This document shows positions 25,904 through 28,520 of a stretch of 64,000 nucleotides of DNA, piece by piece (the first letter of the stretch is position 1; each line of letters begins with the position of its first letter). The position numbers and the translations under genes were made by a program. A model generated the notes under the pieces. That model was not told the origin of the DNA, did no database searches, and saw only the letters and a program-made list of their open reading frames with translations. The DNA comes from Promethearchaeia archaeon (lineage in GTDB: Archaea > Asgardarchaeota > Lokiarchaeia > Sigyniarchaeales > SOKP01): NCBI GenBank assembly GCA_046483985.1, contig JAWOCD010000011.1:9202-73201 (forward strand), in the 5' to 3' direction.

Positions 25904-27640
25904 ATGGAATTTAATAATGAGATCAAAAGATCGGACTACAAATCACGTTTTTGGAAAAACAACTGGGATGAAGGATTAGAAGACCTAGATCCCAATAAAT
26001 GGAAAAAATTGGGATCTTTTGATAATGCCTTACGGCACGCATTTGAAACATATCCAAATAGAAATGCTTTATCATTTTTGGGTGTTGAAATCACCTTTCG
26101 AGAGCTTGATAAATATTCCAATCAATTCGCAAATATGCTCCTCGACAAAGGGTTTCAAAAGGGAGATATTGTTGCTATAGCTATGCCTAACATTCCTGAA
26201 TATATCATTGCAATAGTAGGGGGCTTAAAAGCAGGTTGTACGGTCTCAGGTGTGAGTCCCTTGTTTTCAGATGTTCAAATGGAATATCAATTAAATGATT
26301 TAGGAAGCTCTGGTAGGAAGATATGTTTAGTAACCTTAGATGCAATATTTGAAGAGCGAGTAACTAAAATCCATCATTTGATAAAACAGATCAAATTGGT
26401 GGTGGCAGGAAACCTAGGAGATTTTTTACCAGCTTACAAACGCTTTTTGGGAAAATTATTGAACAAAATTCCCAAAGGGAAGGTAACTCCTTTACCAGAG
26501 AAGGAAGTTTTGGACTTTCATAATGATATATTGAACACTTATCCCCATACTGCAGTGAACGTAGAAGTAGATAATGAAGATATAGCCTTTATTCAATATA
26601 CTGGAGGAACCACTGGAACGCCGAAAGGCGCGAAGTTAACACATAAGAATATTCTTTCCGATTTACTTATTGTGCAAGAGTGGTTGGGGTGGGAAGAAGG
26701 AAAAGGAACTGCTCTATCGGGGTTCCCATTTTTTCACATTGCCGGTTTGTTCTTCTGTGAAAATTGTCTATATCTTGGCTGGCAACAATGCTTAATTCCA
26801 GATCCCCGGGATGCTTCCCATATTTGCGATGAAATAGAAAAATATAAGCCAACGGCCTTAGTCAATGTCCCCTCCTTATTTCAGATTCTATTAAAAGAAC
26901 CAGAATTTAAAGAACTTGATCATTCTAATTTAGAGTTTTGTATATCCGCAGCCTCCCCGTTTCCTGTAGAATCGCAAGAGAAATTAGAAGCAATTATAGG
27001 AGAAGGAAAATTATTGGAGGTTTATGGGATGACTGAAACTTCTCCGCTCACTACTATGAATCCTGCCCACGGTGAAAAAAAACTCGGGTCTATCGGATTG
27101 CCTTTACTAAATACTGAATTAAAATTGGTTGCACCCGATACCGGTGAAGAAGTCCCAATCGGAGAGCCAGGCGAAATATGCGTCAAGGGACCTCAAGTAA
27201 TGAAAGGGTATTTAAATAAGCCAGAAGAAACTGAAAAAGCAATTGACTCAGAGGGTTATATGCATACTGGCGATGTCGCCATAATGGATGAGGAAGGATA
27301 TTTAAGAATTGTAGATCGCACGAAAGATATGATAAATGTCTCGGGTTATAAGGTATTTTCTACCAAAGTTGAAGACACTTTATCAAAACACCCGGCAATA
27401 GACATGATTGCGTTGGTAGGAGTTGATAACCCCGAAAGACCCGGTTCTGAAATAGTAAAAGCATATATTAAATTAACTGCTGAGTATGAAGAGACCCCCG
27501 CCGAAGAAGTTAAAGCAGATATCATTGAGTATGCGAAGGAACACTGCGCGCCCTATGAAGTCCCAAAAATCATTGATATTTCAAAGGAAATGCCTATGAC
27601 AGGAGTGGGTAAGATAGATAAGAAAATCCTAAGAGATTGA
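25904..27640 (+). CDS. Long-chain-fatty-acid-CoA ligase (FadD/LcfA-like)
   Basis: YTGGTTGTPKG, YGMTETSP, HTGD, DRTKDMINVSG and GKIDKK motifs. Confidence 0.93.
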   Translation: MEFNNEIKRSDYKSRFWKNNWDEGLEDLDPNKWKKLGSFDNALRHAFETYPNRNALSFLGVEITFRELDKYSNQFANMLLDKGFQKGDIVAIAMPNIPEYIIAIVGGLKAGCTVSGVSPLFSDVQMEYQLNDLGSSGRKICLVTLDAIFEERVTKIHHLIKQIKLVVAGNLGDFLPAYKRFLGKLLNKIPKGKVTPLPEKEVLDFHNDILNTYPHTAVNVEVDNEDIAFIQYTGGTTGTPKGAKLTHKNILSDLLIVQEWLGWEEGKGTALSGFPFFHIAGLFFCENCLYLGWQQCLIPDPRDASHICDEIEKYKPTALVNVPSLFQILLKEPEFKELDHSNLEFCISAASPFPVESQEKLEAIIGEGKLLEVYGMTETSPLTTMNPAHGEKKLGSIGLPLLNTELKLVAPDTGEEVPIGEPGEICVKGPQVMKGYLNKPEETEKAIDSEGYMHTGDVAIMDEEGYLRIVDRTKDMINVSGYKVFSTKVEDTLSKHPAIDMIALVGVDNPERPGSEIVKAYIKLTAEYEETPAEEVKADIIEYAKEHCAPYEVPKIIDISKEMPMTGVGKIDKKILRD

Positions 27641-27745
27641 ACTACCACGCCATAAATGTCGGTGGATTCGTGCTCTCCGCTACGGCGGATAACACTTGCT
27701 GGTTCTCCAGCGGCTCTCGCATGGTTTCTATTCATTGCGAACTGT
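27617..27745 (-). ncRNA. Putative omegaRNA/reRNA-like scaffold plus flank-derived guide
   Basis: Four consecutive hairpins (27717-27740, 27698-27711, 27670-27695, 27645-27665) lie downstream of a BRE/TATA-like motif and end at the element's right end. Boundaries are inferred. Confidence 0.5.
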
Positions 27746-27845
27746 TTTCTCGGAATTCTTATATATATCCTTTCCGTTATTTAAATGGTTGGATTGGTGC
27801 GATTCATCGCACACCTAAAGGAGTATGTTTTCTCGCACATTTTGG
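27637..27845 (-). mobile_element. Non-autonomous IS200/IS605-family miniature element (PATE/MITE-like), 209 bp
   Basis: On the minus strand: TTTAT target motif, left-end hairpin GTGCGA...CCTTTAGG...TCGCAC (27797-27838), and right-end hairpin GAATCCACCGACATTTATGGCGTGGTAG ending in TTCAA. No target duplication. Deleting 27637-27845 gives CTA AGA GAA TAA, an intact in-frame end for the ligase gene. Confidence 0.85.
27757..27776 (-). promoter_or_regulatory. Archaeal BRE/TATA-like promoter inside the miniature element
   Basis: Minus strand reads CGGAAAGG-ATATATATAAG, about 20-25 nt upstream of the first hairpin. Confidence 0.5.
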
Positions 27846-28019
27846 ATAAAAATAAAAATTGGGATCAGTAAAAAACAGTCACAAAATCAGTAATAATTCT
27901 GACAAATTATTATTACTACTCGTATAATCAGTAATTAAAAATAGCACGAAATTTTCTAAATGTGAAAAAAACATGAATTTTAAAAAAAAAAAAATAGCAA
28001 AAAAAAATAAAGAAAATTA

Positions 28020-28520
28020 TTATAAATCCTTTGAATCGTCTTCTATAGGCTCGTAATGATCAATCGCGGAAATATTAGCTACTGGCTCTTCAGACCATAC
28101 CACTTTAACTGGCATTCCGACATACACATCTTCAAAATCTATATCCTTTCTCAATGATGCTAACATTGTCGTATCACAGCCATCATGACGGACTGCAACA
28201 ACCGGTTTTTCAGCAACTTCTCCAGTTTCGGGATCTTTTTCATAGGTTATACTATATGTGGCAATTTGAGCCGTTTCACGAATATCTACCCATCTGTCGG
28301 GTTTAATAAAGCACTTTCCACAGACCAGTTTTGGAGGAAAAAACACCGCATTACAACTCCGACATTGATTTCCAACTAACTTTCTCTCCTTTAATTTCTC
28401 AAAGAATGGTTGAAAATGAGTGAAGTCAAATCGGAATTTATACTTGGATAAATACCAATTAGCGCCAATTGTTCTTGTCTCTTCATATTCTTTTCTTTCA
28501 TACTCCAATTTTTTTGACAT
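28020..28520 (-). CDS. DUF35 Zn-ribbon/OB-fold protein (cassette 2, downstream)
   Basis: CRSC..VFFPPK..CGKC; clear paralogue of 22197-22718 (WYLSxY, KPDxWV, DVYVGMP, IDHY). Confidence 0.92.
   Translation of the reverse strand: MSKKLEYERKEYEETRTIGANWYLSKYKFRFDFTHFQPFFEKLKERKLVGNQCRSCNAVFFPPKLVCGKCFIKPDRWVDIRETAQIATYSITYEKDPETGEVAEKPVVAVRHDGCDTTMLASLRKDIDFEDVYVGMPVKVVWSEEPVANISAIDHYEPIEDDSKDL

Follow-up and report, generated by a model that had tools for sequence, protein, structure and literature searches.

A gene-less 209-nt IS200/IS605 derivative with an omegaRNA-type scaffold region at the stop codon of an archaeal acyl-CoA ligase gene

Results

A non-autonomous IS200/IS605 derivative and its family

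We identified the 209-nt sequence at 27637-27845 of the window (the whole stretch of DNA analysed, 64,000 nt), read on the minus strand, as a non-autonomous, ORF-less derivative of the IS200/IS605 type, a PATE (Table 1). It probably arose by internal deletion from a tnpB-only parent and is now an old, orphan relic, a reading to which we assign a probability of about 0.65. The sequence-only reading of this DNA had described an ORF-less mini-element that follows TTTAT and ends in TTCAA, and each of these features was found at the minus-strand coordinates it gave. In the left end, an outer stem of GTGCGA (27838-27833) paired with TCGCAC (27802-27797) on the minus strand encloses an imperfect hairpin, CATACT-CCTTTA-GGTGTG, and the guide tetranucleotide AAAA (27831-27828), also inside the left end, pairs with the target TTAT. 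This left-end hairpin is degenerate (6 bp, two of them G.T) against the family consensus CACCGTCC-TTTA-GGGCGGTG. The right-end hairpin, CCAC(C)GACA-TTTA-TGGCGTGG (27665-27645), has one A.G mismatch, and the element terminates in TAGTTCAA with 27637 as the last base. The TTTA loop is common to the left-end and right-end hairpins; there are no terminal inverted repeats.

Table 1. Positions of the element's parts, its host gene and its flanks in the window
Feature	Position	Strand	Basis or remark
Host gene, AMP-binding enzyme (acyl-CoA ligase type), 578 aa	25904-27640	plus	Pfam
Target/transposon-adjacent motif TTTAT (core TTAT)	27850-27846	minus	directly 5' of the left end; element start = 27845
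Left end	27795-27845	minus	nhmmer E=5.4e-18, alignments, fold
TTTAAATA, conserved archaeal TATA-box-like motif	27785-27778	minus	alignment to tnpB elements
Second A/T-rich motif ATATATATAA, preceded by GGAAAGG	27768-27759	minus	the BRE/TATA of the sequence-only reading
Vestige of the tnpB 5' end, AAG AAT TCC GAG AAA ACA G	27742-27760	minus	alignment to relatives
H1, TCGCA...TGCGA	27740-27736 with 27721-27717	minus	fold
H2, GCTGG-AGAA-CCAGC	27711-27698	minus	fold and alignment
H3 compound stem, outer GTGTT/AGCAC, inner TCCGC-CGTA-GCGGA	27695-27670	minus	fold and alignment
Right end	27637-27669	minus	GAAT guide tetranucleotide, hairpin, TAG, cleavage motif TTCAA
3' flank TCTCTTAGGATTTTCTTATC	27617-27636	minus	would-be guide of a read-out omegaRNA

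Two short open reading frames that overlap the element, one of 60 aa (27553-27735, minus) and one of 70 aa (27637-27849, plus), were rejected as coding, since neither is in the frame that encodes TnpB in homologous copies. Within the 209 nt that frame is not kept, and there is no tnpA or tnpB remnant frame either. An Rfam search gave no family match for the element, a tnpB-linked copy or an intact relative, and a tRNA/tmRNA search of the window returned none.

Both ends recur throughout the genome. The left-end core has 162 nhmmer matches; the right-end core is present in ∼40 copies by BLASTN and ∼100 by profile, with an identical last base and unrelated flanks. Since repeated copies share the terminal base and differ in their surroundings, the ends are not a matter of chance. 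The check for extra copies with different flanks, suggested together with the sequence-only reading, turned up multiple copies of left and right ends alike. About 28 paired ORF-less family members could be aligned, mostly of 219-227 nt. Neither the genome nor the collections searched contain a second copy of the exact 209-nt sequence; its sublineage consists of this one complete copy, a sister at C97:38632 (right 119 nt, 84%) and a left end at C67:14027 (85%). TTTAC or TTTAT precedes most left-end matches of the family. On contig C23, one member is nested in the left end of another element; the filled site reads ATTTTAC[CACTAGAG...GTTCAA]CCTAAGAA, whereas copies without the nested insert read ATTTTACCCTAAGAA. 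This comparison gives the exact family ends and shows that no target duplication is made. The proposed mode of insertion, 3' of an AT-rich motif without duplication, is therefore supported by the TTTAT flank at the ligase locus and by the nested pair.

In IS608 of Helicobacter pylori, the guides are AAAG on the left and GAAT on the right, the target is TTAC and the right end is TCAA. The element shares with IS608 the insertion 3' of a TTAC-type tetranucleotide, the TCAA end, guides located 5' of subterminal hairpins and a target that follows the left guide. It differs in having neither tnpA nor tnpB, in its left guide AAAA and target TTAT, and in the tnpB-only parent seen in its relatives. Genome-wide, the target-guide pairs are TTAC-AAAG (41), TTAT-AAAA (31) and TTAT-AATA (8), against four cross-combinations; GAAT...TTCAA is present in all family right ends, and the 209-nt copy carries AAAA with TTAT. 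PF01797 (Y1 TnpA) has 15 matches in the genome. The assembled tnpA copies all carry a stop, a frameshift, a deletion or a contig-end cut, and all belong to an end family other than that of the 209-nt element.

Insertion at the stop codon of the ligase gene

The host ligase, with PF00501 (E=5.9e-89) and PF13193 domains, ends in ...KKILRD*. Its coding sequence closes with ...AGA GAT TGA, and the TGA (27638-27640) falls within the right end of the element. Deletion of 27637-27845 restores ...AGA GAA TAA; the stop-codon arithmetic of the sequence-only reading, with its change of E to D, is correct base for base. On the plus strand, ATAAA, the complement of TTTAT, holds the original TAA stop, and the last bases of the right end, T+TGA, supply the new last-codon base and the new stop. 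The empty allele at the ligase stop is predicted to read ...AGAGAATAAAAATAA, or ...AAAATCCTAAGAGAATAAAAATAAAAATTGGG across the junction. Ligase homologues in related genomes end in ...KK[IV]LR(K/S)E*, ...LLRE* and similar sequences; with C-termini so alike, the ligase protein is not truncated. The element sits between convergent genes. The ligase genes of relatives end without it and the locus is not conserved; they are only ∼70% identical, and no empty allele was found among these genomes at the nucleotide level. Neither the exact 24-mer abutting the junction nor a 28-mer from the scaffold matched the metagenome contigs searched.

Long ORFs run into 13 right ends, 8 of them in the NNT-TGA frame (binomial P ∼0.035), and stops of ORFs of at least 150 codons carry 7/102 right ends, compared with 3.0% expected at tolerated TTTAY sites (Poisson P ∼0.04). 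The suggestion that stop codons serve as a safe harbour is borne out to the extent of a ∼2-fold enrichment; as a strategy it was rejected, because the effect is weak and the target motif together with purifying selection largely explains it.

Descent from a tnpB-only element

Elements with intact tnpB genes and matching ends, which the sequence-only reading had proposed to look for, exist in related Promethearchaeota MAGs. They encode a 417-aa TnpB (PF01385 and PF07282) whose N-termini read MILRTNILELNPS, in the order left end, TATA box, ATG-tnpB, right end. The left half of the 209-nt element can be aligned with these from the left end through the TATA box to the first tnpB codons, and its right ∼85 nt correspond by homology to the 3' end of tnpB and the right end. 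This homology on both sides makes it an internal-deletion derivative that keeps an omegaRNA-type scaffold. The distance from the tnpB stop codon TAG to the right-end terminus downstream is 40 nt in remnants of the same genome and 42 nt in the relatives with an intact element. Where the relatives have ATG (ATT/CTT) CGG ACT AAT..., that is, M(I/L)RTN, the 209-nt copy has lost the start codon and retains the decayed vestige; the alignment places the putative deletion junction just downstream of it.

The intact elements, found in Promethearchaeota archaeon isolate DZ2S.179 and in genomes of the same family, share the left-end architecture, the TATA box, the M(I)LRTN start, the AGAA-loop hairpin, the compound stem and a right end of the form GAATCC-hairpin-TAGTTCAA, and they insert at a TTTAC-type target. 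They differ in length (∼1.4 kb) and in coding for the 417-aa TnpB; missing from the mini-element are ∼1.2 kb of sequence and, in the compound stem, the innermost hairpin, and the H1 of the mini-element cannot be aligned to them. The earlier proposal had both tnpA and tnpB lost; of the two losses only that of tnpB is shown, the parent type in the relatives being tnpB-only (IS1341-like).

An internal promoter had also been proposed at ATATATATAA. The parental promoter region is indeed kept and ATATATATAA is present, but the motif conserved as the TATA box is TTTAAATA, further upstream. It aligns with a near-invariant TTTAAATA or TTTTAAAATA that precedes the start codon of tnpB by ∼25 nt, both in the remnants found in this genome and in the intact elements of a related Promethearchaeota MAG. 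The intact elements also have an A/T-rich stretch at the position of ATATATATAA, only ∼8 nt before the ATG. By its alignment, the TATA-like motif was inherited from the parent's tnpB promoter.

Conservation of the scaffold hairpins

All four hairpins of the sequence-only reading and the left-end structure are present in both the MFE and the centroid RNA folds of the element (z=-3.4, 0/200 shuffles as good). H1 has no alignable counterpart in the intact elements, which form a different hairpin at that position; the sister at C97:38632 keeps 4/5 of its pairs, one through a compensatory change of G-C to T-A. H2 appears as GGTGG-AGAA-CCATC and GGTAG-AGAA-CTATC in tnpB-linked copies. H3 is homologous to their three-tier stem, of which the innermost hairpin is absent in the 209-nt copy. 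RNAalifold recovered H2, H3 and the right-end hairpin as a consensus. In helix 2, 97.3% of cells are paired with two-sided changes at 2 pairs; in helix 3, 98.1% with such changes at 4 pairs; helix 5, in the right-end hairpin, covaries as well. Consensus pairing reaches 95.6% of cells, compared with 36-45% for slid partners, and two-sided (compensatory) changes occur at 10 pairs, a number attained in 0/500 shuffles, in an alignment of 15 sequences that represents few independent lineages and a region that is also coding in the tnpB-linked copies. The omegaRNA-like scaffold proposed earlier is thus homologous to the 3' end of tnpB and the right end of intact elements, in sequence as well as in covarying structure.

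A covariance model (R1) was built, as had been suggested, and the hairpins proved conserved with compensatory changes; the model scores the 209-nt element at 68.9 bits and matches 76 loci in the genome. Scaffold matches at E<=1e-4 number 48 in this genome and 35 in one related genome. Scaffold-bearing mini-elements (∼50-75) outnumber minimal 47-nt elements (∼10) in the genome. For the 224-nt family, the global RNAalifold fold is poor, and a single interior helix covaries clearly. The excess of scaffold-bearing over minimal elements and this covarying helix hint at past or present selection on the scaffold.

For the 209-nt copy itself, selection on the stems was considered and set aside: 27/28 pairs are intact compared with 23/28 in the sister copy, a difference that is not significant. 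The two copies are 16% diverged and the stems of the former are still near-perfect, an observation that would fit continued selection at the RNA level and counts against a relic, with an excess short of significance.

Search for a partner TnpB and for guide targets

The sequence-only reading had assigned the would-be guide to a trans-encoded TnpB-like protein, and this partner did not materialize. Six-frame searches with PF07282 and PF01385, tblastn with the intact relative and phmmer on ORFs of at least 280 aa found no intact cognate tnpB in this 97%-complete assembly, only fragments with frames of at most 160 aa; the assembly consists of 128 contigs with repeated elements collapsed at contig ends, so that this absence is not proof. 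The sole intact TnpB, of 409 aa (family D), shares ∼29% identity with the cognate type in an alignment of 113 residues and belongs with another end family, a different scaffold and an apparent TTAA (TTAA-like) target, not TTAT. None of the family-D right ends (C68, C57, C96, C41:94912, C116:41608) is in the R1 match list. A guide function of the 209-nt element in this genome is therefore hypothetical. Two further observations count against a relic: the collapsed repeats could conceal an intact cognate tnpB or tnpA missing from the assembly, and contig C33 encodes a divergent 689-aa TnpB/Cas12-like ORF, a RuvC protein.

By geometry, the 3' flank is antisense to the last ligase codons, as had been noted earlier. 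The first 16 nt of the would-be guide (TCTCTTAGGATTTTCT) match exactly only at their own locus in the genome, and matches with 2 mismatches are near the control level. The 3' end of a paralogous ligase gene (C102:103858) was rejected as a guide target, as it has 2 mismatches and is preceded by CATAA rather than TTTAT.

Discussion

We propose that the PATE originated by an internal deletion of ∼1.2 kb from a ∼1.4-kb tnpB-only (IS1341-type) element. It keeps the left end with its hairpin and AAAA guide, the tnpB TATA box followed by remains of the first few codons, now decayed, ∼105 nt from the tnpB 3' region and right end that correspond to the omegaRNA scaffold region of the intact relatives, and the right end with GAAT, its hairpin and TTCAA. 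Movement was presumably as single-stranded DNA, in the manner of IS608, with a Y1 TnpA acting in trans. The AAAA guide would have selected TTAT, leading to insertion without duplication 3' of TTTAT, the complement of the ligase's terminal A-TAA. Read in this frame, the right end supplies T-TGA, so that the ligase exchanged only E for D and gained a stop; the insertion was presumably tolerated for this reason. If transcribed from the retained promoter, the element may yield a scaffold of ∼100-120 nt with a 3' guide equal to the flank; such an RNA, together with a cognate TnpB, would cut the empty TTTAT site, and recombination would restore the element, as in the published cases of trans-acting PATE omegaRNA.

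The element is most likely old and at present an orphan relic, with the scaffold there by descent and not as an active guide cassette, because only fragments represent the cognate TnpB in this genome, the left-end hairpin of this copy has degenerated and the closest relatives of the element are partial. It is unlikely that we are looking instead at an active, self-promoted guide-only cassette whose omegaRNA joins a TnpB-family nuclease encoded elsewhere, the complex then cutting the empty TTTAT-TCTCTTAGG... site and driving retention and homing. The promoter region and the full scaffold are kept with 27/28 pairs intact, the scaffold structure is conserved with that of intact tnpB elements, scaffold-bearing PATEs are abundant (48 and 35 matches in this and one related genome), T-runs upstream (28019-27846) imply a need for an own promoter of the kind present in the element, and the published model and the trans-activity of standalone omegaRNAs provide precedent. 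As for the nuclease, it might be an unassembled cognate copy, the 409-aa TnpB of family D or the divergent 689-aa protein. However, no intact cognate tnpB is present in the 97%-complete assembly; the 409-aa TnpB is ∼29% identical, R1 misses its 3' region and its elements adjoin TTAA-like motifs; and the sublineage has a degenerate left-end hairpin and only one complete copy. We regard as very doubtful the wider proposal that the ∼50-75 promoter-plus-scaffold mini-elements form a dispersed library of trans-guides, here and in at least one related genome, read by the family-D TnpB or the 689-aa RuvC protein, with the TTTAY/TTCAA geometry (NNA-TAA to NNT-TGA) adaptive for parking on stops.

The host could also have taken over the insert without any TnpB, either through a read-out transcript acting in antisense on the ligase mRNA at its 3' end or as a 3'-UTR/terminator module between the convergent genes. 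The right-end read-out is antisense to the last ligase codons, and the insert is strongly structured (z=-3.4) and suitably placed between convergent genes, but nothing about it is locus-specific: the same family adjoins many unrelated genes and the ligase locus in relatives ends without the element, which makes such exaptation highly improbable. A chance set of hairpins, or a structured RNA gene particular to this locus, would agree with the missing Rfam match and with the uniqueness of the exact 209 nt. Both ends, however, fall into families of dozens to hundreds of copies with the same terminal bases and unrelated flanks, a nested filled/empty pair exists and the interior is homologous to tnpB elements; copy number and boundaries have already refuted this explanation.

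PATEs of Haloquadratum walsbyi derive from IS605/IS1341-type transposons, arising when tnpB elements lose their core (Dyall-Smith et al. 2011, PMC3119063). As in the present family, they have subterminal palindromes, no terminal inverted repeats and no target duplication, and are too short for a transposase; ∼50-bp versions consist of the termini only, tnpA and tnpB are mostly disrupted and some PATEs keep a C-terminal part of tnpB. The host here is an Asgard archaeon (Promethearchaeota), not a haloarchaeon, and the end sequences are unrelated. That study predates omegaRNA, and the kept 3' region is not interpreted there. Standalone omegaRNAs acting in trans with TnpB/IscB are attributed to Altae-Tran et al. 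2021 as cited in PMC10691335, and PATE-borne omegaRNAs in trans with TnpB were reported by Meers et al. 2023 (PMC10055086). Guide-only PATEs that act in trans are therefore a known concept (Meers 2023; Altae-Tran 2021/2023; Dyall-Smith 2011). Like the published units, the 209-nt element has no effector or transposase, a right-end scaffold, a flank equivalent to a guide and an empty TAM-adjacent site as the predicted target. For the published omegaRNAs a compatible effector resides in the same genome and expression and trans activity were shown, whereas the present element is known from sequence and no intact cognate TnpB was found.

The element contributes an Asgard (Promethearchaeota) case to a known class, the gene-less IS200/IS605 derivatives with a retained guide-RNA region, and illustrates a route of origin, the fusion of a tnpB promoter to an omegaRNA scaffold by internal deletion. 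The large number of scaffolds set against no cognate TnpB deserves notice and is not surprising per se, given Haloquadratum and Geobacillus. The exact family ends and the covariance model can be used for annotation and for TnpB tool mining, in which the 209-nt copy represents a compact natural variant of the scaffold with one hairpin fewer. The family is also a natural display of the IS608 guide/target rule, with AAAG accompanying TTAC and AAAA accompanying TTAT.

Insertion at the stop codon of a ligase gene

The sequence-only reading had described a 209-nt ORF-less IS200/IS605 element behind TTTAT. Each of its claimed hairpins and the TTTAT flank were found on the minus strand at 27850-27637, and all hairpins were present in both the MFE and the centroid RNA fold of the element (z = -3.4; 0 of 200 shuffles folded equally well). 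The host ORF terminates in AGA GAT TGA, with the right end of the element donating the T and the TGA. In silico excision of 27637-27845 gave AGA GAA TAA AAA TAA, thus returning the proposed original stop. Ligase homologues in related genomes terminate in ...KK[IV]LRKE*, ...LRSE*, ...LLRE* and similar, indicating that the present ...KKILRD* is full length; an ancestral ...LRE* terminus is plausible from these sequences. The spacer at 27846-28019 (minus strand), between a ChsH2-like zinc-ribbon/OB-fold gene (28020-28520, minus strand) and the element, contains very long T-runs (T10, T14 and T7), which resemble archaeal terminator signals and make read-through into the element unlikely.

Features in the window and on contigs (C-numbers) of the same genome
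Feature	Location	Strand	Remark
Target motif TTTAT	27850-27846	minus	read from sequence
Element	27845-27637	minus	terminal bases ...GGTAGTTCAA
TATA motif of element	27785-27778	minus	TTTAAATA
Host ORF, AMP-binding enzyme	25904-27640	plus	PF00501 E = 5.9e-89, PF13193
Minimal 47-nt elements (examples)	C45:44461-44507, C45:82027-82073, C107:60560-60606, C99:47635-47681, C74:22720-22766
Third right-end family (examples)	C85:16213-16507, C69:11925-12195, C59:4606-4875, C24:95700-96023
tnpA-tnpB element copies at contig ends	C96:60142-60414, C74:120035-120406, C116:41780-42052, C4:180-437, C76:7934-8329, C26, C27, C16:1-291, C9:63583-64155, C59:1-475
689-aa ORF	C33:17123-19192	minus	no Pfam family; TnpB/Cas12-like signs

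Derivation from a tnpB element

Near its right end the element matches tnpB remnants of the same genome at C24:23891, C18:104495, C71:19188 and C14:4442, in which the tnpB stop codon sits 40 nt ahead of the right-end terminus. The C18 remnant frame contains OrfB_IS605 and TNB domains; used as a query, it identified intact 422-aa open frames in related genomes (one recorded as 'MAG: Promethearchaeota archaeon'), giving 417-aa TnpB proteins from the start codon that have both TnpB domains and share 64-67% identity with the remnant where they overlap. The intact elements of these relatives are tnpB-only and ~1.4 kb long, in the order TTTAC, left-end hairpin, TTTTAAAATA, ~25 nt, ATG-(I)LRTNILELNPS..., stop, 42 nt and TAGTTCAA. 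Homology of the mini-element to them covers, on the left, their left end, near-invariant TATA motif and first tnpB codons, the start codon being gone (AAG AAT TCC GAG AAA AC versus ATG ATT CGG ACT AAT AC); on the right it runs from the AGAA-loop hairpin through to the terminus. The element thus derives from such a parent by internal deletion, which has brought the tnpB promoter and a remnant of the tnpB 5' end up against the final ~105 nt. A partial copy, 84% identical (C97:38632-38750), has the same junction, so the derivative has existed in at least two places. Loss of tnpB, as proposed, is borne out by these alignments; a loss of tnpA is not, since the relatives are tnpB-only.

Family size, boundaries and target rule

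The genome assembly (4.06 Mb, 128 contigs, 97% complete) contains ~40 BLASTN copies of the last 20-40 nt of the element, all with the same terminal base and unrelated sequence beyond, in agreement with the claimed mobility; the element belongs to a mobile-element family and is not a one-off. Profiles gave 127 right-end matches, ~100 with a TTCAA-type end, and 162 left-end matches in several sub-families. Pairing of ends on the same strand yielded 28 ORF-less elements, mostly 219-227 nt, and most right ends have 100-380 nt of ORF-free sequence upstream, followed by unrelated genes in either orientation. About ten minimal 47-nt elements (TTTAT followed by CATAGACGGCAAAAGAAAACACCGCCCTTTAGGGCGTGGTAGTTCAA) use one hairpin as left and right end at once. 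Contig ends C125:1-120 and C127:1-170 carry 54-bp units (GGGTTACCACTAAAGTGCGAGAAAGCACCGTCCTTTAGGGCGGGGAGACTTCAG) repeated head-to-tail, each joining a left-end core to the right-end core of another family; minimal chimeric elements arrayed in tandem, or misassembly of repeats, may account for them.

Scarless insertion was confirmed at the family level on contig C23, where a family member interrupts another element's left end. The occupied site reads ...ATTTTAC, the inserted element (CACTAGAGTGCGAG...GTGGTTGTTCAA) and CCTAAGAA..., and uninterrupted copies read ...ATTTTACCCTAAGAA, placing insertion exactly 3' of TTTAC with a TTCAA terminus and no duplication. The tetranucleotide 5' of the left-end hairpin tracks the target (AAAG with TTAC, n = 41; AAAA with TTAT, n = 31; AATA with TTAT, n = 8; cross-combinations, n = 4), and in right ends GAAT precedes the hairpin on its 5' side while TCAA forms the tip. 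These end rules match those of IS608. The element has AAAA and adjoins TTAT; its unusual target is thus encoded by its own left end.

The complement of the target is RTAAA and that of the right end starts TTGAA, so insertion at the TAA of a convergent gene always turns NNA/G-TAA into NNT-TGA, a general property of the family rather than of this copy. Among 13 ORFs of at least 100 codons running into a right end, eight are in the NNT-TGA frame (binomial P ~0.035, our own calculation). Stops of long ORFs (at least 150 codons) hold 428 of 48,306 TTTAY sites, or 3.0% of the sites outside long ORFs, and 7 of 102 right ends, a roughly two-fold enrichment. The overlap of the target with TAA stops, as suggested, holds; the enrichment fits survival of tolerated insertions under selection, and a dedicated strategy is not required.

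The nearest described class is the PATEs (palindrome-associated transposable elements) of Haloquadratum, which have palindromes near their termini without inverted repeats or duplications and derive from IS1341-type elements that lost their core, leaving as little as ~50 bp; most tnpA and tnpB genes there are disrupted, and one PATE retains part of the tnpB C-terminal region (PMC3119063). The minimal 47-nt elements parallel the 52-bp terminal-only PATEs. The element adds to this existing class rather than founding a new one.

Conservation of the scaffold

We aligned 15 scaffolds, ten of them tnpB-linked copies from relatives; the others were the element, its C97 sister copy and three remnants of the same genome. 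The RNAalifold consensus contains the compound stem as well as the AGAA-loop and right-end hairpins, and 95.6% of cells were paired, versus 36-45% with partners slid by 1-3 columns. Two-sided changes occurred in 10 pairs (0 of 500 shuffles attained the observed values), in few independent lineages and with the tnpB-linked copies also coding in this region; examples are GGTAG/CTATC, GGTGG/CCATC and GCTGG/CCAGC in one hairpin and TAGT/ACTA versus GTGTT/AGCAC in another. In the mini-element 27 of 28 pairs are kept and the innermost hairpin is missing; it has a TCGCA/TGCGA hairpin of its own, in which the sister copy (23 of 28 pairs) shows one compensatory change.

A covariance model (R1) of the kind that the earlier reading had called for was derived from the aligned scaffolds; it scored the element at 68.9 bits and found 76 loci in the genome. 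No Rfam family matched. R1 matches occurred in 10 of 41 genomes of the family, with large expansions in this genome and one other (48 and 35 matches, respectively, at E<=1e-4). R1 was the sole route to a third abundant right-end family (...CATTAGAGAATATGAATCTCACGCCTTTAGGCGTGAGTAGTTCAA, ~35 copies), mostly 270-325-nt ORF-less elements with left ends TTTAT followed by CAAAAAAGCAAAAGAAAACTCCATCC....

Orphan relic or guide cassette

Altae-Tran et al. (2021, as cited in PMC10691335) state that standalone omegaRNAs work in trans with compatible effectors; the concept of a trans-acting guide cassette is already published (see also Meers et al. 2023, PMC10055086), and complements the likeness of the element to PATEs and IS608. 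The first 16 nt of the predicted guide have no exact genomic match other than their own locus, as expected for a homing guide. An active cassette is kept in play by the fact that scaffold-bearing derivatives far outnumber minimal ones, and the assembly is fragmented at repeats, where a partner could lie. Against this, the cognate TnpB lineage was represented in the genome only by fragments in six-frame PF07282 and PF01385 searches, tblastn with an intact relative and phmmer over all ORFs of at least 280 aa. The one intact TnpB, of 409 aa (C97:3-1229; further copies are cut by contig ends), belongs to a different end family (right end ...CCCCGTCCTTTAGGGCGGGGAGACTTCAA, left ends that appear to adjoin TTAA) and shares ~29% identity with the cognate type across 113 aligned residues; no right-end position of that family is among the R1 matches in this genome. 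Since, in addition, no assembled tnpA copy is free of damage or truncation at a contig end and the left-end hairpin of the element itself is degenerate, we rate an orphan relic, its scaffold presumably present by descent, above an active guide cassette. Of the proposed trans-guided system, the retained scaffold stands, and no intact cognate TnpB was found in this 97%-complete assembly.

In a related genome of the same family but another genus, scaffolds likewise stand out of proportion to intact tnpB, with 35 R1 matches (E<=1e-4) against a best cognate frame of just 295 aa. Many contigs of the window's genome are broken by a tnpA-tnpB (IS605-type) element with right end ...GGGCGGGGAGACTTCAA. 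Its copies are 95-100% identical in protein, and it is probably the autonomous element now active in this genome; each fully assembled tnpA copy has a stop, frameshift or deletion. The 689-aa ORF gave a weak six-frame OrfB_IS605 match, an Atlas feature score of 0.95 to Cas12f1-like_TNB clusters and structural TM by row of 0.56-0.68 to TnpB clusters. No right-end-type motif was found downstream of it; its motif 'YTSGICGEC' aligns with 'YTSSICPIC' of TnpB, and the surrounding DNA seems more GC-rich than the genome's 35%.
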